This document shows, one piece after another, positions 795 through 51,780 of a stretch of 64,000 nt of DNA. The notes under the pieces were generated by a model. That model worked only from the letters and a program-made list of their open reading frames with translations, had not been told where the DNA came from and made no database searches. The position numbers were made by a program, and so were the translations under genes. Origin of the DNA: Octopus vulgaris (lineage: Eukaryota); the NCBI GenBank assembly GCA_951406725.2, contig OX597817.1, positions 82,770,001-82,834,000 on the forward strand, given 5' to 3'. Position 1 is the first letter of the stretch; each line of letters begins with the position of its first letter.

Positions 795-798
<4 letters not shown>

Positions 799-1412
799 AC
801 AATCAAGGAACGGCCATAATAGGCCATTCACCCACTAGAAATAACAGCCAAAGCTTCAACCGCAAATAAAAGTTAATTCTGTAAACCAGGAGAAAATTTA
901 AAAAAACATTTACCCTGTAATTTCTTATACGATATACCGTTTCATCTGCTGATTAATGGTAAACTAACCTGATTAAATTAAATCAAGCCAATCTTCCACA
1001 GGCCCTCAGATTCATCAGTAAGAAATAGCCCAAGTCGGAACAGATATTTTCACGAGGCATTTCCGACCTTGCCAAGTTTATATCTGACCTAAAATTTTCA
1101 AATCGTCGCACTCGCGCCAAATTTATCGGCAGCAAATAAATATAAGCCGTCGATTCCATTACGGAATTAACCAGAAAATTCATAATTAATCAATATAGGG
1201 TGGCAAAAAAAATTTTGTAGAATTCTTTTGCCACCAGCGGCCTAGTAGGAAAAAATTAAATAGTCATAGACCATTTTTAAGTTTAACATCAACAATCAAG
1301 GAACGGCCATAATAGGCCATTCACCCACTAGAAATAACAGCCAAAGCTTCAACCGCAAATAAAAGTTAATTCTGTAAACCAGGAGAAAATTTAAAAAAAC
1401 ATTTACCCTGTA

Positions 1413-1413
<1 letters not shown>
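795..1413 (-). mobile_element. Non-autonomous HHR-bearing element (retrozyme/Penelope pLTR-like) with 126-bp direct terminal repeats
   Basis: 795-920 matches 1288-1413 (offset 493); (TA)n on both sides; internal hammerhead on the minus strand. Confidence 0.75.
920..1026 (-). ncRNA. Type I hammerhead ribozyme with intact core and long stem II insertion
   Basis: Minus strand: ATTTCTTA-CTGATGA-ATCTG-[insert with hairpin]-CAGAT-GAAA-CGGTATATCG-TA-TAAGAAAT; 8-bp stem I, 5-bp stem II, near-palindromic stem III, GUA triplet (cut 928/927). Confidence 0.85.
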
Positions 1414-3369: not shown

Positions 3370-4080
3370 CTCTACCTCTACCTTTCTCTTTTCTCTCCCC
3401 CCGTGACCGGTGTTTGGCCAAGCCTAACCTTTCTTTCTTGGTTCGGCCGTCGTCCGTGTAACATCTATATTCCTCCCTGTGCCTGTAAAATCTTGTATCC
3501 CTGCCGTAAGGTTTTACTTCCACACACGCGCCAACTTAATTTAATTCGTCCTTAGTCGAAAGACACCTGTTGTTATGTCCTGTTATTTGTATTTGTGTAA
3601 CATTCTTCGTTTTCTTCCGTCCTTGTTTGCATATACATTCGCTGCTTTCTTCCAAGGAATCGTTCTTAGCTTAGTTCTTCCTTGGGGCTGGCCAGATCGG
3701 AGCAATCCCGAGTATAACCAGCCGAAATTGCAAAGATAATCTTGAACTCGACTGAGGAAAGAAAACTCCGAATGACCCGTCCTTGTTTCCTTGTCTCATC
3801 TCCTGGATGATTTTTTGTCCCTTTTTTGTATCCTCTGCCTGGATGTTTTGCGTTCTTGACCCATTTCCCTCCGGTCTTTCATAATGTGACCTCGTGTATA
3901 CTGTTGGCGATTTTTTCTCTGTCTTCCCTTCTCTGGATCATTCTTTCTCCTATGTTTCCGACGAAGAGCTCCGCTCGAAACGTTAAACCCTCCTTCTTTC
4001 CTTCTTTCCTGGACATCCAATAATATATTTTTTCCACGTCCTCGCGTTGTTGTGTTTTTTTGTGCTATCTTGTTTGGATA

Positions 4081-15859: not shown

Positions 15860-18100
15860 TCTTCTACCAAAAAAATGAAGACATACCTTCTACTAAGAAA
15901 TGAAGACAAAAAATCCAATGTACTACCGACCAATAACATGTCTCAACACCGCCTACAAGATCCTCATATCTATATTAACTGACAGAATATACGTTTTCCT
16001 TGAACGCAGGTCTCTCCATCCTCTAGCTCAAAAGGTGTAAAAAGAATTCATATGGGTGCAAAGATCAATTACTCATAAGTAAAATGATTGTAGAGTAGTG
16101 CCGGAGCAAAAAGAACTTGAGTATGGCATGGATAGACTACAGGAAAGCGTTTGATAGTGTCACACATGAAGGCCCTTGAAATATATAAGATCTCTCCAAA
16201 TTCTTAAAAGGAAGCATGGCCAAGTGGAACACGCCTCTCCTTCTAAACCAATCTAACAACATCAACATCAAATGAGGCATCTTTCAAGGTGACTCCCTCT
16301 ACCTGTTACTCTTTTGCATGGCACTGATTCCACTCTCAAACGAACCGAATAACACCAGGTATGAGTTCAAAGTTTATAATACGACAATAAATCATCTGTT
16401 TTCAATAGACGATCTGAAGCTGTATGATAGAAAGTACGAAGAGCTAGTACTGTTAAAGAGTTCAGCAATGATATCGGAATGGATTTTGGCCTTGATAAGT
16501 GTGCTAAACCAACTTTTATAAGAGGCAAGCTCAGGAAAACAGCTTCCCTTAAATTAGATACCGACTCAACCATCAAGGGGATTGACCCACAAGAAAATTA
16601 CAAATACCTGGGGATAAACGGAGATGGTATACAACATGCTACTATGAAGGAAAAAATATGACAAGGGTATTACAAGATAGTAAGACTCATGCTAAAAACT
16701 GAACTCAACTCGTAAAATTGCATCGAAGCTATTAACACACTGGCACTTCCAGTACTCCAATATAGTTTTAACATCATTAACTGGAATCTTCAAGATTTCC
16801 AGCACCTGGACAGGAAGACAAGCAGAGTATTAACATCTAAGAACATGCACTACCCAAAAGCAGACGTTGATCGTCTGTACCTACCTAGAATTAATGGAGG
16901 AAGATGAATGATGCAGGTAAAATTGTGCTAAAAAACCTCCACAATAGCAATGAACAGGTACTTATCTAGTACAGAGGACTGGACGCACGGCTTGTGTGCA
17001 AATACGAAAGCAGCAAAAAATCACATTCTATTGTCAAGGAAGCTTGCAAATTCGCAAGGAAACTTTGCATTAACCCTGAAATAGATGATGAACCTGAAAC
17101 TACTGTCACAAAACAAGTAAAACGGGTCAAGCAGATTGCAAAAAGGAACGGGCAGAAACAAACTGAGGAGCGGTGGAGCCAGAAGCCTCTGCATGGACAG
17201 TATATACTTTGAAGTCAAAATACTGATGTACCCAGCAACAACCCATCAGTGGCTGAGAAGTTTAGGACAGAAAGCAGAGTCTGAAGATTTCATAATGGCA
17301 GCAAGAGCTCAAAGCTTGCTTACAAAACACTACCAGGCTAACGTTCTTCAAAACGGTTCTCACGCTAAATGCAGATTCTGCAACACATTTGATGAAACAA
17401 TAGACCATCTCGTCTCGGGATGTCCTGTACTGACACCAAATGAACACAAAAATCACCACGATAAGGTAGGAGAGTATTTACATTAGAAAATATGTAACCA
17501 CTGCAAAATCAGCACTCCTGCTTACTGGTATGAACATCAGTCGTTGAAGGTAATAATGTCACTATCTTCTGGGATTCTCCAATGAGCTCTAACAGAACGA
17601 AACAGGCTAATCAACCAGACTTAATTATTAAAGACAGGGAAGAAAATACTTGTAGACTAATAAATATAAATATTCCCACTGATAAAAATATATCTATAAA
17701 GGAAGTTGACAAATTATGTAAATATATGGACCTGGAAATTGAAATACAAAAGATGTAGCATCTTAAAGCGAGAACTGTTCCTGTTATTGTAGGTGCCATA
17801 AGCATGATAAAAAAGGGATGTCAGAAACATCTAGATACGATCCCAGGAGAACCACGTCTCAGAGAAATCTAAAAGATTGTGCTGACAATTACCGCCCTCA
17901 TCCTTAGAAAAGCCGTACCCATTTAAATGTCTGTGTTGTATTACATGAAGATATTTCGATACTGCCCCTGCCACTTCTCCTCCCCAAACCTTCAGTCATA
18001 TTGTAACATCTCTTATCCTTCACTCGTCCCAGGACGCTGGGTGTGTCTTGGCAAGTGATTGTAACAAACACGCATATTAAAAGTAAAAAATAATAATAAT
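15860..18100 (+). mobile_element. Degenerate R4/Dong-like LINE (RT + CCHC + RLE)
   Basis: AWIDYRKAFDSV, GIFQGDS, INHLFSIDDLKLY, MDFGLDKCAK, CRFCNTFDETIDHLVSGCP, NQPDLIIKD; many stops and frameshifts. Confidence 0.9.
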
Positions 18101-30537: not shown

Positions 30538-32029
30538 ATACATACATACATACATACATACATACATACATACATACATACATACACACTTATATGTATG
30601 CATGTACGTATGCATTCATACATATTCAGCTATGTACACTTCCTTTTATATTATTGCAGAAATAATATTAACGAGTTATTAGTAGTTTCCCTTGAGTGTT
30701 AACAACTCGTCTGATAATACGCATCCTTACTCACTAATGATTTTCAATTATTTATTATTCACAGCTGTTTTAATTTTCCTCTCATTTTGAAAAAAAAAAC
30801 CAAACGAAAAAAAACCCAGCAAAAAACACAAACAAAATAAGAAACATATCTTAATCAACGATGCTACCACCGACAACAACAAGAAATAAAATCACATTCG
30901 TTATTTTTCTTCTTCATATATTTTTATTCTTCTAATTTATATTTATGACATCAATTACCCATTTTGTGGAGGTCGAATAGAGATTTGGTAGTGAAAATAC
31001 TATTCAGAGGATTATGGCCGGAAGTCAATTTCAGCAACAAGTCAACAGCTGTATTCAGTTCCAAGAGTAGTCTCGTGAAAAATGCGAAAATAACTCGATT
31101 CATTACAAAGACGTATTGCAAGTTAATTGCAAATCCTTTTGGTTACAAGTAACAGGCGTTAATTTTATTTCCCCCTTTATCGCGTCTCTTGTTCTGCTCG
31201 GCTTTTATTCTGTTAAGTCTTATAATCTTCAAACGGAGAATTAATTTATTTAGAGCAGTAAAACCAGTGGATTCATAAAAGCTGAATAGCTACCAAATAC
31301 TTGTCACTGGTGAATTATCCCACTTAGAAGTAGTGTACTTATTGATTCGATGCCAATCATATGATATCCATTGTTAGAGCAAAATATAATTTTGAGTTAT
31401 CACTGATTGGATTGATACTCCGACTACATTATAACTAATGAAGGTATTGCAAATGCAAACTCTATAAAAATGTTAACATGTACTTTGTATTTTAACAGTA
31501 TGGATTGTAAATAATCTACAAAAATAATTCATCATAAGTTCAATCATTCTATTTTTCTCACTCTCTTGCTGTTCAAATATTTTTGAAATTGGATGGATTT
31601 TTATTTATTTCACATTTTCTGTACAGGAATGTCCTTGGTGACAACTTACCAATTAGTTGAATCACTGGATCACAGTGGTTACAATAGTGAAAGTGGGGAT
31701 AAGAGATATGTTTGGAGTAAAACTAAAGCAGAATAAAAACACCCAAAATAGTTTCTTCTTTGAAAACACGAGTGAAAATGAAAATACGAATCATGATGCA
31801 TATTTTCTGTACAAGTGCTGTCTTTTAATTGGTGTAGTATGTAGTCAATGAAATGCCATATTCTAGAGGGATCTAAAATATATATCAATTAACACATCCT
31901 TCTTTTTCCAATTTTCCCGGTCACCATCAGACCTCAACAATGCTTATTTTGACGAAGTTGTTGAACTTATAATTCTTCATCACTTGTCACATCCCATCGT
32001 GCCAAACACGGTCAAAGGCCTTTTTTGAA

Positions 32030-32735
32030 ATGCTTCTCAACATCCTCCTGGAGAACATCATGCAAGAAAAACTTCAAGACCTCGACACCTCTGTTTCCAT
32101 TAGAGGACGGCCCATATTTAACCTGCCCTTTGCCGATGATATTGATCTTTTAGGAATCAATGAAGCAGAACTACAGCAGTTCACCACCAAATTGGCAAAA
32201 GCATCAAGAGCATGTGGGATGGAGATCAGCCCAGAAAAGAACAAGATCTTGGTTAATAGTAACAGCCAAAATACAGTGGCTAAACTTATGCTAAAAAGAA
32301 AAATATTTAACGAAGTGGACACCTTCAAGTACTTAGGATCAACTTTGACTAAAAATGGTATATTTAAAAAAAATTACAACAAAACTCAGTTTAGCTTCTA
32401 TCATGATGAACCTGAACAGCATATGGGATAGCAATTCCATTAGGTTTCCAACAAGGCTCAGGTTTTCAACAAGACGTCTTGCACAGGTAAAAAGACGTAA
32501 GTTTGCCTGATAGGTCATGTATTCCGCTACAATTCCCATTTCCAAAACCGCCCTTCAGTGCACTGTTGAGGGTGGGCGGAAGAAAGGGACATCAGGCACT
32601 TGACAAGTTACATCACTGCAATCCAGCTTCGCATGACAGAGAAGAGCGACCAGTGGCGACGACTGACTACGAAAGCATCCAGAGTGGCATCCCTACGACT
32701 GGTTGCATCAGTTAAGGGATCTTGATGATGATGAC
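32030..32735 (+). mobile_element. RTE-clade LINE fragment (RT C-terminal half plus 3' end)
   Basis: ORF 32030-32431 with GRPIFNLPFADDIDLLG...GMEISPEKNKILV...FKYLGS; short (GAT)n tail. Confidence 0.8.
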
Positions 32736-44057: not shown

Positions 44058-45090
44058 TCAGCTCATCCCATAAGTTCCGTCCGATTTTACCTTTTTTAAA
44101 ATTGAATGAAATTTAATAGTATTTTAGAATTTCTAATGGAATTAAACATTATTTTTATGCATTTTTGTACATTTAAACTAATTAAATATTATTTTACAGA
44201 ATAATAGAATTAAAATTTCTTTGATTAAAACCCTTTCTAACATGGAAGTATCCAAAGAGCATTTGAGGCACATAATGATTTATGAGTACAAAAAATGGAA
44301 ACTCTGCAGCCGAAGCGACTCAAAACATACAGTCAGTTTATGGGAAATGATGCTTGAATGAAAGAATTTGCAGAAGAGGGTTTGCAAAATTCAGAAGTGG
44401 AGATTTCAGCCTTGAAGATGAAAATCAAATAGAAGTCCAGTTGAGATTGGTGATAAGCTCCTTGAGGTATTACTTGAAGAAAATCCTGCATTTTCAGTTG
44501 AAGAATTGGCAATAAACCTTAGTTAAAACCATACAACTGTCGATCATCATCCTCAAAAACTTGGAAAGGTTCCTAAACTTGGAAAACGGGAGCCTTATGA
44601 ATTGTCTGAAAGCAACCGCAAATCTCGAGTTGACATCTGCTTTTCTCTCCATTCACGCGAACTCATTTCATCCTTTTTGGACAGACTTGTGAATGGTGAC
44701 GAGAAATGGATCTTCTGTAGAAATGTTAAACATCGTAAACAGTGGCTTGGTAAAAGGGAAAAAGCTCAACCCCAACTGAGAAGGGAACTTCATGGGAAAA
44801 ATGTTCTTCTCTCTATCTGGTGGGATTGCAAAGAAGTAATTCAAGTTGAATTGTTACCAATTAATGCAACAATCAATGCTCAAGTCTACTGCCAGCATTT
44901 AGAACGTTTGAACCAAACTTTGAAGAAAAAAAGGCCTGCTTTAATGAATCGAAAAGGAGTGATATTTCATCAGGACAATACGTGACCCTACACCGCAAAT
45001 ATCACATTACAGAAGATAGAAGAGCTTGGTTGGGAAAAAAATTCCTCATCGAACTTATTCTCCCGACCTAACTCCTTCAGACTACCATTT
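44058..45090 (+). mobile_element. Mariner transposon, 3'-truncated, pseudogenised transposase
   Basis: Starts MEVSKEHLRHIMIYEY at 44242; ORF 44602-44985 with GDEKWI...WWDCK...IFHQDNT; then YSPDLTPSDYHL; TA at the left end. Confidence 0.9.
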
Positions 45091-47063: not shown

Positions 47064-49465
47064 CACGTCGCACACTATACAACATCGTGAGGTTGTTGAT
47101 TGAAGATATTGTGTCCACAATATCAAGAGACAATGGGGAAGATGTTGCTCCTGATGCAAATCAAGACAAGGAGTTCTAGAGCAGATTATGGGGAAACAAT
47201 GTGGTGCATAAAAGGGGTGCAATGTGGATAGAAACAATCAAAACAGAATTACAAGGAGGACGAGCGGGAACAAGTGGGTAAAGTGCCTAACTAGAAAGTC
47301 CCCAGACCAGATGGGATTCATGGCTTTTGGCTGAAGAGATGCTATGCGTTGCATGAAAGACTAACAGCCCAATTGAATGAGTGTGTTCAGAAAGGTATAG
47401 ACGCCGCTTGGATGGTAACTGGGAGGACAACACTCATAAGGTAAGATAGAAAAAGGGAGAATATTTCGGGAAACTACCGTCTCATAGCATGCCTAAACAT
47501 AATCTGGAAGATACTCACTGGACATATATTTTCCTGGCACAAGAAGAAATATTGCCGAAGGAACAAAAAGGATGTAGAAATAATTCTCAGGGTACCAAGA
47601 ATCACCCGGTCATCGATAAAACAGTTTTGAGGCATTGTAAAAAACATCATACAAACATGTCTATGGGTTGGATTGACTATAAGAAGGCATATAATATGAT
47701 GCCTTCTCCTTTGATCGTTGAATGCCTGCAGATATTTGGTGTTGCTCAGAATATCACAAATTTTCTGATGCATAGCATGAAAGAGTGGAAAACCAAATTG
47801 TAGTCAAGTAATATATTCGCTGGAGAAGTTAATATTAAAAGAGGCATCTTCCAAGGTGAATCGCTTTCTCCGTTACTATTTGTAATTGCACTAACACCCA
47901 TAAAAATGACACTTAGGAAAGTTAAGATGGGTTACCAATGTGGGAAGAAAGGCCTATCATTGAACCATCTTCTGTTTATGGATGACCTGAAACTGTTTGG
48001 GAAATCTGATAAGCAGATATATTTCTTAACCAAAACAGTCCAGAAGTGTGGTAGGGACATCGGTTTGGAATTTGGGATTACCAAATGCTCAGTACTTAAT
48101 ATGAAAAGAGGGAAGAAAGCAGCCTGCAGAGGATTGCAGTTACCATCAGGAGAGACCTTGGGTGAACCCGACAGTGGTGGATATAGATGTTTAGTGATTT
48201 TGGAACTGGATGACATTCTACACAAATGAAAGTCAAGTTCAGCGAGGCGTATCAAAAAAGTGTGAAGATGGTGTCGAAATCCAACCTGAATGCCAAAAAT
48301 TTGATTACCGCAATGAATATCTGGGCAGTTGCGGTGGACAGATATAGTGAGTCCATCCTCAAATGGACTAAGGAGGAAATATCAACACTAGATATGCCCT
48401 AAAGCAAACGTAAACAGAATGTATATGAAAAGAAAGAATGGTAGCAGAGGACTAATTAGTATAGACCATTGTATAAGGAATGGAAGGAGAACGTTTACCG
48501 AGTATTTGATAAATAGTGATGAAGACCTACTGCATTATGCCGTGAAAAATATGGGTATAAAGGTAAATGAAATGATGGGCAAGGAAGAGTTTAACCAAAG
48601 AGCTCAGGAAAGGGGAAAAGAAGACCGTGAAATGTGAATGTAAGGACAGTTTGAAAGGAATACACAGGGCGTTAAGAATAATTCAGCATCGTGGGCATGG
48701 CTTGAGCGAGGTGATTTGAAGCGTACCATCGAAAGCCTGATCATTGCTGCACAAGACCAGGCTCTCGCTACCAAGTCAGATAAAACTTCGATAAAACTTC
48801 TGACACCCAGAAATGCAGACTCTGTGGAAAGATTGTAGAAAATGTGACCCCCTAGGTAAGTGGATGTGAGAGCCTTACACACAAAGAATACAAGCGCCGC
48901 TACGATAAAGTGTGTGTGTATCTTCATTGGCTCTTATGCCGTAAATACCAATATGAAGTATCAGAGAACTGGTATGAGCATGTACCAAGTAAAGTTGTGC
49001 AGGAGGATGGAAAAGTAACGATACTCTGGGACTATGATTTTCAGACAGATCGTGTATTCGAACACCGTCGGCCGGATATTGTAATATTGAATAAGAGAGA
49101 TAAATACTGTCAGATCATTGATGTAGCCATACCACATGACATGAATGTTGTGAGTAAAGAGGTAGAAAAATTCGCCAAGTACTCCGAATTGAAAGTGGAA
49201 ATGACAAGACTTTATGGAATGCGAGAGGGTAATGTAAAACTGAAACCAGTGGGGATCGGAGCGTTAGGCTCAATCCCATTGAAACTTCAAGACCTTCTAA
49301 GGCAACTTGAAATCTCTTGCAAGATTAATGTCTGGCAAAATGCAGTCATATTGGGCACAGCGCACATCTTAAGGAAAGTATTATATGTCTGAGATTCTTG
49401 TTGTGACTTGACAGATGACTAAAACCTCCGGTGCATTTTTACCTACACTGTGTTACGAAAAACTA
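47062..49465 (+). mobile_element. Degenerate RLE-clade (R4/Dong-like) LINE: RT + CCHC + RLE
   Basis: MGWIDYKKAYNM, GIFQGESLSPLLF, LNHLLFMDDLKLF, CRLCGK, ILWDYDFQTDRVFEHRRPDIVI...IIDVAIP...EKFAKY, GTAHILRKVL*; (CTA)n tail. Confidence 0.92.
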
Positions 49466-50330: not shown

Positions 50331-50449
50331 AAAATTTATATTATGATATATTCTCTGAATTCAAATACTGCCCTTTCCGAATGAGACGATCTTACTAGTT
50401 AGGACTGATAAAAATGAGGCAGAATGAGGCGATCAGCCACCTCGTCGCC

Positions 50450-50511
<62 letters not shown>

Positions 50512-50530
50512 GATGATGATGATGATGATG

Positions 50531-50572
<42 letters not shown>

Positions 50573-50632
50573 GTAATAATAATGATAATGATGATGATGA
50601 TGATAAAAATAATAATAATAATAATAATAATG

Positions 50633-50670
<38 letters not shown>

Positions 50671-50676
<6 letters not shown>

Positions 50677-51780
50677 CTGCAAAAATATCTACTTCAGAAG
50701 GAAGGAAAACTGATCCAGATAGCGGCAAAACACGAGCAAAACAAAAAACTGTTCTCAGTATTTAAGGAAGCTGACAAATACAAACAAGAAATCATACCAC
50801 CTAATAAACATGAAGAAGAAGAAGAAGAAGATGAAGAAACAACAAAAGCTATAAAAAAAATGAAATCCAAACTAAAAATAGAACAGCAACGAACCATGAT
50901 AAAACGATGGCAAGAAAAGCCCCTTCATGGTAAATACTGGACTAAACTAAACGCAAAAGAAATAGACAAAGAAAAATCCCAGCAATGGTTGAGAAGCTCA
51001 GGACTCAAAGCAGAAACAGAGGGATTTTTAATTGCAGCACAAGACCAAAGCCTCCCCACCAGAAATTACCAAAAACATGTAATGAAAAGAAATATTACAA
51101 GTAACTGCAGAATATGTGGAGATGGACAAGAAACAATAAATCATATTATCTCTAGCTGCCCAGTCCTGGCTAAGAAGGAATATATTCACAGACATGACAG
51201 AGTTGGAACTTACATACATTGGAAGCTATGCCAACATTATGGAATAACAACAGAAAAAAGATGGTATAGGCACACACCAGAAAAGGTCACAGAAAACGAG
51301 AAAGCAACCATACTCTGGGATATGCCGATACACACAGATAGAGAAATTAAGGCCAACAGACCAGATATAGTTGTCAGAGACCATGAAGAAAAAAAATGCT
51401 TTCTAATTGATGTATCAGTACCGGCAGATGACAACGTGTCTCTAAAAGAAATGGAGAAACTCTCAAAATACAAAGACCTGGAAATAGAGGTAACTAGAAT
51501 GTGGAATCTGAAAACAGAAACAATTCCTATCATAGTAGGTGCATTAGGCATGATAAAAAAATATTCAGACAAATACATAACAAAAACACCAGGACTTACA
51601 AACACATATAACATACAGAAAATTGCACTACTGGGCACTGCACACATCCTACGCAGAACACTTTCCATACAATAACCATCAGAGCATCACAACAAATCAC
51701 AGCACAAACCCAAGGCACACAGAGCTGTGCTCGGTAGTAAAGTGAAAGCACGCTATAAAAATAAAAATAAAACTACTGAA
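50671..51780 (+). mobile_element. Young 5'-truncated Dong/R4-like LINE in (AAT)n
   Basis: Frame open from 50671 to the stop at 51675; (AAT)n on both flanks; short 3' UTR. Confidence 0.92.
50860..51675 (+). CDS. Retrotransposon C-terminal region: CCHC zinc knuckle plus restriction-like endonuclease (fragment)
   Basis: CRICGDGQETINHIISSCP, RHD, NRPDIVVRD...FLIDVSVP...EKLSKY, GTAHILRR. Confidence 0.8.
   Translation: MKSKLKIEQQRTMIKRWQEKPLHGKYWTKLNAKEIDKEKSQQWLRSSGLKAETEGFLIAAQDQSLPTRNYQKHVMKRNITSNCRICGDGQETINHIISSCPVLAKKEYIHRHDRVGTYIHWKLCQHYGITTEKRWYRHTPEKVTENEKATILWDMPIHTDREIKANRPDIVVRDHEEKKCFLIDVSVPADDNVSLKEMEKLSKYKDLEIEVTRMWNLKTETIPIIVGALGMIKKYSDKYITKTPGLTNTYNIQKIALLGTAHILRRTLSIQ

Follow-up and report, generated by a model that had tools for sequence, protein, structure and literature searches.

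A non-coding 493-nt hammerhead repeat of Octopus vulgaris with two fixed 3′ ends in (TA)n runs, likely inserted by a Penelope-type enzyme from RNA likely cut by its ribozyme

The window is a 64,000-nt stretch of the Octopus vulgaris genome (contig OX597817.1, positions 82,770,001 to 82,834,000), taken from a 2.8 Gb assembly. A 619-nt retrozyme copy occupies positions 795–1413 on the minus strand. With the 493-nt unit numbered from the first base after the predicted ribozyme cut (m1), the copy reads m8 to m493 followed by m1 to m133. Its terminal redundancy consists of two direct repeats of 126 nt that are 100% identical and 493 nt apart, as the original prediction had described them. The 5′ repeat (1288–1413) starts 7 nt past the position of the next cut site (1421/1420). 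The 3′ repeat (795–920, m8–m133) ends at m133, a fixed 3′ site termed A and the presumed reverse-transcription start of this copy. The copy is a single arm without an inverted partner. A second fixed 3′ site, B (m239), is internal at 1182 and is used by the inverted arm of most other insertions. Predicted minus-strand hairpins lie near both sites: an 8-bp hairpin at 808–829 (also 1301–1322) ends 13 nt upstream of site A, and a 13-bp hairpin at 1199–1235 ends 17 nt upstream of site B. The copy is flanked by a (TA)n run at the 3′ junction (742–796, the target site) and another at the 5′ junction (1416–1454), and a target-site duplication is unreadable in this microsatellite. The last 2 nt of the repeat (795–796, AT) belong equally to the TA run. 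An 81-bp MITE-like element with terminal inverted repeats lies between TA runs at 661–741, and no second copy of it was detected among the family and Penelope-like element (PLE) loci compared. Elsewhere in the window, the frames 17121–17486, 47804–49392, 50428–51675, 31973–32431, and 44527–44985 resemble pieces of what we take to be LINE reverse transcriptase/endonuclease and a mariner-type transposase.

A complete type I hammerhead motif spans 920–1026 on the minus strand. Stem I pairs 1026–1019 with 927–920 to give the 8 bp originally predicted. The core continues with CUGAUGA (1018–1012), an extended helix II of 68 nt (1011–944), GAAA (943–940), a helix III of three Watson-Crick pairs with a palindromic loop, and GUA. 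A17 of the GUA is at 928, which places the predicted cut at 928/927, where the original prediction had put it. The fold of the ribozyme region beats 200 of 200 shuffles (z −3.5), and the catalytic fold lies 1.8 kcal/mol above the minimum-energy fold. Rfam gave no hammerhead family match at the gathering score for the window or at E ≤ 10 for 700–1500, probably due to the long helix II. Core positions are near-invariant across 67–70 loci, N7 and H17 excepted, and are conserved across subfamilies. Across 17 variants, 97.6% of cells are paired. Changes on both sides are found in two pairs, one in helix II (G-C to A-U) and the other in the middle of the helix III loop (TATA to TGCA, still palindromic). 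This apparent covariation of the ribozyme, in two pairs, rests on few events. The palindromic loop III fits the double-hammerhead fold reported for animal type I motifs, and motifs with a weak helix III are described as cleaving poorly as monomers (PMC4209133). In Xenopus, one of nine predicted retrozyme dimers is reported to cleave in vitro (10.64898/2026.07.22.740005). The motif pattern is intact at 353 of 359 crossings of the cut site in the octopus copies. Four of the six non-matching crossings are point changes, and one locus (L150) lacks ~16 nt from the cut onward in both arms. The shortened unit of L150 occurs once per arm amid intact units (L150:1622-2097 and 3398-3514). The deletion begins exactly at the cut; a 3-nt microhomology is an alternative explanation.

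The genome was searched for further copies. The counts were 854 exact matches to an internal 26-mer (none for its control), 2117 matches to a degenerate hammerhead pattern (one for its control), and 235 to a pattern joining the 3′ junction to TA. The first look yielded 1124 candidates, of which the best 40 were scored; these are mostly 98–100% identical and often tandem. Subfamilies are 82–93% identical. The unit is 35% GC and has no ORF of 120 aa, and tblastn gave no significant match between it and two resident PLE proteins. Arrays reach ~9.6 units per arm, and tandem copies contain at least two complete hammerheads. The window copy carries one hammerhead only and would be unable by itself to yield a monomer circle. 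Terminal redundancy differs between copies, and there is no LTR structure. These data identify the multi-copy family of retrozyme type, with tandem 493-bp arrays, that had been predicted from the window copy, and they support the proposal that the copy was made by reverse transcription. Contigs assembled from eight sequencing runs cover the unit, where tandem DNA would give the junction expected of a circle. An apparent T>C excess in these contigs was considered as A-to-I editing and rejected: the strongest site, 1019, is also found in the large DNA-like run X15, and the remaining T>C sites rest on single contigs at depth <5.

Insertion structure was determined from the loci behind the first 100 listed matches each of the 26-mer and of the 3′ junction plus TA pattern, together with the best-scoring loci. 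This sample of 104 loci was unselected for length. Four loci that were cut off or compound (L054, L135, L140, and L163) were left out, leaving 100 loci with 176 arms. Seventy-four loci have an A arm and a B arm head to head, 22 have A only, 2 have B only, and 2 have A+A; several of the A-only loci show a B stub too short to call. Ninety-eight of 100 A arms end at m133, a count to be read with the selection in mind, as site A and the TA flank are partly built into the half selected by the 3′ junction and the arm caller demanded TA. Site B was never a selection criterion, and 76 arms end at m232–243, 54 of them at m239. In the 38 loci picked by the internal 26-mer alone, which were chosen without a TA condition, the outward 3′ ends within the retrieved stretches are at m129–136 or m234–243 and adjoin (TA)n. 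Sites A and B are 133 and ~239 nt past the cut. The main feature of the family, absent from the original prediction, is the head-to-head pairing of arms whose 3′ ends lie at two fixed sites in (TA)n; this is a PLE signature. PLE anatomy is reported to include partial tandems, an inverted 5′-truncated copy, and a tail at one end only (PMC8557442, PMC3846280), and the tail of an anole PLE was traced in vitro to two internal reverse transcriptase start sites (PMC11167929). At the arm-to-arm junctions of L047, L050, L057, L121, L127, and L139 there are repeated short T/A units that match m22–34 and resemble slippage or reiterated copying by reverse transcriptase. One compound insertion, L189 (G000:C4:46280400-46287000), has an identical rearranged block in both arms.

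The positions of the arm 5′ ends were compared with the predicted cut in a hazard test. Five indel-broken arms were hand-corrected; adding one overlooked arm and leaving out the window copy again gave 176 arms. The 5′ ends bunch just past the cut, as the original prediction anticipated: m1–30 holds 47 of the 176 ends against 12.4 expected from the bases at risk (P = 1e-15). The density is 6.9/kb in m1–30 compared to 1.3/kb in m61–493 and 2.7/kb in the best 30-nt window elsewhere. The pile-up has a sharp edge, with 26 ends in m1–12 and 2 in m482–493. Arms stop there on 37 of 148 first arrivals compared to 10 of 100 later ones (P = 0.003). Among arms that have passed one cut site, 10 of 111 end in m1–30 against 4.4 expected (P = 0.013), and 4 of the 16 other single-arm copies end at m1–16. 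Arms of the same insertion tend to agree at the cut: both stop before it at 24 loci, both cross it at 40, and 11 loci are discordant (odds ratio 32, P = 3e-9). Among pairs that cross, arm lengths show no correlation (rho 0.16, n = 40). We read this as two template classes, an RNA that begins at the cut and an RNA that continues across it. Twelve of 30 first-pass B arms end at m22–24, within a T/A palindrome, and none does so on later passes. The palindrome favours joining, and thus sequence matters too in shaping the pile-up. Overall, the accumulation of copy 5′ ends past the predicted cut is an indirect sign, read from genomic copies, that the family RNA likely cleaves itself.

The uniformity of units within an insertion bears on the nature of the continuous template. 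Of the locus-by-site cells at 48 segregating sites, 21 are mixed, where a random draw of units would give 1037, and 2187 are homogeneous. Between arms of the same insertion, 1679 of 1687 informative cells agree. Thirteen private variants are fixed in all units of their own locus, 11 of them in both arms. The cut site is crossed at least once by 111 of the 176 arms and at least twice by 52. A monomer circle is the simplest account of the homogeneous units, and we lean slightly toward it. Some variants in 37 long arrays recur at periods of 1, 2, 3, and 4 units, at times mixed within one arm, and 96 of 550 shared-allele observations are polymorphic within the array. Two locus pairs among 121 loci share two within-array variants. 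The periodic variants of the 37 arrays were also tried as the footprint of a dimer or trimer circle, which failed as the periods are mixed within arms. Mixed periods go beyond a monomer circle alone and point to later local duplication or heterogeneous multimeric templates. Together with the within-array polymorphism they indicate some contribution from later local duplication or from linear multimers as templates, and the circle is something we only infer.

These results bear on the history proposed for the window copy. The original prediction took the identical repeats as a sign of youth. The copy is young, as three other loci have 0 differences from it over ~490 sites, but repeat identity reflects a single template together with youth and not youth alone. 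A template RNA of ~1.25 units had also been proposed and is set aside: the 3′ boundary is the fixed site m133 used by the A arms, so the 126-bp redundancy is simply 133 minus 7 and no 1.25-unit template is required. The copy does stop at 1413, 7 nt short of the cut position one unit on, and its shape recurs in L040, which ends at m5, and L043, which ends at m16. The excess among arms past one cut site attributes slightly over half of such ends to the cut. Self-cleavage is therefore probable, not certain, as the origin of this 5′ end, the balance of likelihood being on its side. The predicted tandem or circular template stands insofar as an RNA continuous at one cut site is needed. A closed circle does not fit, because it has no 5′ end and the window copy requires an RNA that runs unbroken through one cut site and terminates at the following one. 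The template to be expected for the window copy is a dimer processed in part or a nicked circle.

Two young PLE families with intact ORFs were examined as possible partners. The 727-aa family is very abundant, with 5652 first-look candidates, and its copies are 97.6–99.5% alike (L262–L281, e.g. L269:1669-3849). The protein has RWK, DKT, and CxCX5C motifs and a C-terminal endonuclease region; Pfam detected no domain in the ORF. Its motifs fit the Hydra clade, and assignment to Naiad was ruled out since the motifs and endonuclease region match the Hydra description. This Hydra-clade element carries a canonical hammerhead and has ends 37 and 108 nt past its own cut, a 71-nt tail, with the short end paired with the long one in three of the three inverted loci where both ends were read. 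The 781-aa family has an intact ORF with reverse transcriptase and GIY-YIG domains (L101–L117, e.g. L103:1342-3684), and its two ends are 38 nt apart, before (TA)n. A long open stretch lies upstream, the 3′ UTR contains tandem repeats, and ~100 nt before the 3′ end there is an atypical hammerhead-like motif with a UUGAUAA core. We did not detect an autonomous PLE with the ends of the retrozyme among the families sampled, the best 150 of 6136 and the best 150 of 5652 candidates having been scored in two protein searches. No significant match to the retrozyme came from the 3′ ends of the 781-aa and Hydra-clade families or of other GIY-YIG loci; the similarity score was reached by 17 of 300 shuffles for the Hydra-clade end and by 66 of 300 for the 781-aa family. 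Twenty loci with isolated hammerhead matches were tried as PLE ends and all proved to be retrozyme subfamilies, and a 22-nt motif from a divergent hammerhead in sequencing-run contigs has 0 genome matches. Next to the window copy, positions 1455–1622 hold a piece of a second, older repeat family with 1565 first-look candidates, the best copies being 90–96% alike over ~105 nt. This family has head-to-head arms, two ends ~52 nt apart, and TA flanks, and its longer copies L225 and L229 carry a compact type I hammerhead motif. It shares with the retrozyme a 20-nt motif ~50 nt upstream of the short end, at a score that 23 of 300 shuffles reach.

With good confidence, the window copy belongs to a non-LTR retrozyme, a non-coding 493-nt hammerhead repeat with two fixed end sites in (TA)n, and its copies were likely inserted by a PLE reverse transcriptase/GIY-YIG endonuclease from RNA that was likely cut by the ribozyme. 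The series of events would be as follows. The PLE enzyme would nick both strands of a (TA)n run, two cDNAs would begin on one RNA at m133 and m239, and their ends would join through microhomology. On a linear RNA that starts at the cut, both cDNAs would run off the 5′ end to give short (~340-nt) palindromes. On RNA continuous across the cut, they could extend up to several units, and the likeliest such template, by a narrow preference, would be a ligated monomer circle. For the window copy, synthesis would have begun at m133, passed one junction, and halted 7 nt before reaching the second. The complete scheme, in which a Penelope-type enzyme in vivo primes twice on one ribozyme-processed RNA, with run-off from the linear form giving palindromes and rolling around a ligated monomer circle giving homogeneous tandem arms, is tentative, its prospects falling a little below even.

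The circle step of this scheme has an alternative. It is possible, if less than probable, that no circles exist: cut-crossing copies would come from linear read-through of uncut or partly cut tandem donors, and arrays would grow and homogenise in place by unequal exchange, with the PLE enzyme, the two starts, and the run-off at the cut retained. Variant repeats of mixed period within arms favour this explanation, as do a two-unit repeat of L182 found only at the far end of one arm, the 96 of 550 observations that are polymorphic within the array, and the two within-array variants that L133 and L179 share. The poor monomer cleavage of weak helix III motifs noted above (PMC4209133) also fits, and later-pass stops at the cut (10 of 100) fit partly processed multimers. 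However, pairs of loci sharing two within-array variants number only 2 among 121 loci, and the variants shared by L133 and L179 sit in different arms and in different order. The arms of one insertion differ in 8 of 1687 informative cells, and the 11 private variants that all units of both inverted arms carry have to come from a single unit or from an unsampled donor. The cleavage step has its own competitor, a transcription start or an A/T-rich template-switch hot spot near m1–30, which we regard as unlikely to have produced the pile-up. This segment is 80% A+T with a T-run/A-run palindrome, the m22–24 ends of 12 of 30 first-pass B arms have junctions that carry repeats of this motif, and PLE pseudo-LTRs are reported with promoter-like motifs (PMC3846280). 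Neither source accounts well for the sharp edge (26 ends in m1–12 versus 2 in m482–493), for the use of m22–24 12 times on the first pass and 0 times later, or for the fall in stop rate from 37/148 to 10/100. Moreover, the 4 of 16 other single-arm copies that end at m1–16 have no arm-to-arm joint, and the catalytic core is conserved across subfamilies. A transcription start may coincide with the cut.

The origin of the head-to-head arms was also considered. Self-priming, in which one strand folds back in place of two primings on RNA, has been proposed for rotifer PLEs on an antisense template (PMC3846280), and ~10 of 75 two-arm loci have near-symmetric junctions. Most junctions are asymmetric, however, and the short palindromes argue against it. 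The 16 short palindromes have differing haplotypes and junctions, which makes them separate events; in 15 of 16 the A arm is closer to the cut than the B arm (1 tie), and only B contains m134–239, so neither arm was copied from the other. We regard self-priming as very unlikely. Finally, the window copy taken alone, with direct terminal repeats flanking a 367-bp core, could pass for a local duplication, a DNA satellite, or a miniature LTR element with 126-bp LTRs. The chance of this is close to nil. The copy survey refutes it with hundreds of dispersed copies that have variable 5′ ends, tandem units, and inverted arms; redundancy varies from copy to copy, and TG..CA termini are absent from the sequence. 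The single-copy local duplication named beforehand as the case against the original prediction falls with it. Copying by a PLE enzyme from two starts on ribozyme-processed RNA is the reading we retain.

If this reading is true, hammerhead cleavage and RNA circles would be tied to PLE-type integration, a connection that in the literature consulted has so far consisted of proposals. The role of the hammerhead in PLEs is called unclear (PMC8557442, PMC7761336), the circle-templated, PLE-driven spread of animal retrozymes is put forward as a hypothesis (PMC7229834), and a 2026 preprint terms its own life-cycle evidence limited (10.64898/2026.07.22.740005). The anole PLE is described as inserting in vitro with no need of cleavage, and in that study no RNA reads ended at the cut (PMC11167929). 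The octopus family would provide a natural substrate with known start sites for rolling-circle target-primed reverse transcription. Its young copies, in the hundreds, yield countable predictions: cDNAs should begin at m133 and m239 and stop at the cut, templates should fall into two classes, and each insertion should have a single haplotype. Together with the two intact resident enzymes, a 493-nt RNA makes it possible to test directly what the ribozyme and RNA circles contribute to PLE-type integration.

In the open literature, supplements aside (those of PMC7229834 and PMC8557442 may list cephalopod families), we found no report of the 493-nt family, of twin fixed 3′ ends or head-to-head arms for any retrozyme, or of a pile-up of retrozyme copy ends at the cut. 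The main text of the octopus repeat annotation (PMC13282606) does not contain the word ribozyme. Judged by its structure, the element is a non-LTR retrozyme in the sense of PMC7229834 and PMC7761336. As described by Cervera & de la Pena 2020 (PMC7229834) and by Li, Clavereau & Pollet 2026 (10.64898/2026.07.22.740005), metazoan non-LTR retrozymes likewise have low-GC, non-coding tandem units that each contain a single type I hammerhead, and both reports already propose mobilisation by PLEs. The 493-nt unit is within the 51–972 bp range of units in the 2026 preprint and is longer than the 170–400 nt RNAs of PMC7229834, and the octopus hammerhead differs from theirs in the extension of helix II to 68 nt. 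In Xenopus, 24 of 57 families have a known TE match (10.64898/2026.07.22.740005), whereas no pseudo-LTR homology to an autonomous PLE was found for the octopus family among the families sampled. Circles and cleavage are demonstrated in the metazoan retrozyme papers, whereas the octopus family is known from genomic DNA.

The endonuclease-bearing PLEs (Hydra, Neptune, Naiad, and Poseidon; Craig et al. 2021, PMC8557442; Frangieh et al. 2024, PMC11167929) are reported to share with the octopus retrozyme the partial tandems, the inverted 5′-truncated arm, the tail at one end, the (TA)n targets, and a hammerhead upstream of the 3′ ends. The retrozyme differs in having no ORF, hence no reverse transcriptase/GIY-YIG coding, and in its tail of 106 nt, compared to 30–40 nt in these PLEs and 71 nt in the resident Hydra-clade element. 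In the octopus genome the ends of copies are tied to the cut, in contrast to the anole PLE, which needed no cleavage in vitro (PMC11167929). Plant LTR retrozymes (PMC4918200) are also hammerhead-processed non-autonomous retroelements with terminal direct repeats, which some octopus copies have. The plant elements are described with a type III hammerhead, true LTRs, PBS/PPT, and a 4-bp target duplication, in contrast to the type I hammerhead, variable redundancy, and microsatellite targets of the octopus family. The class of element is already known, and this family is one with an unusually readable mechanistic record.
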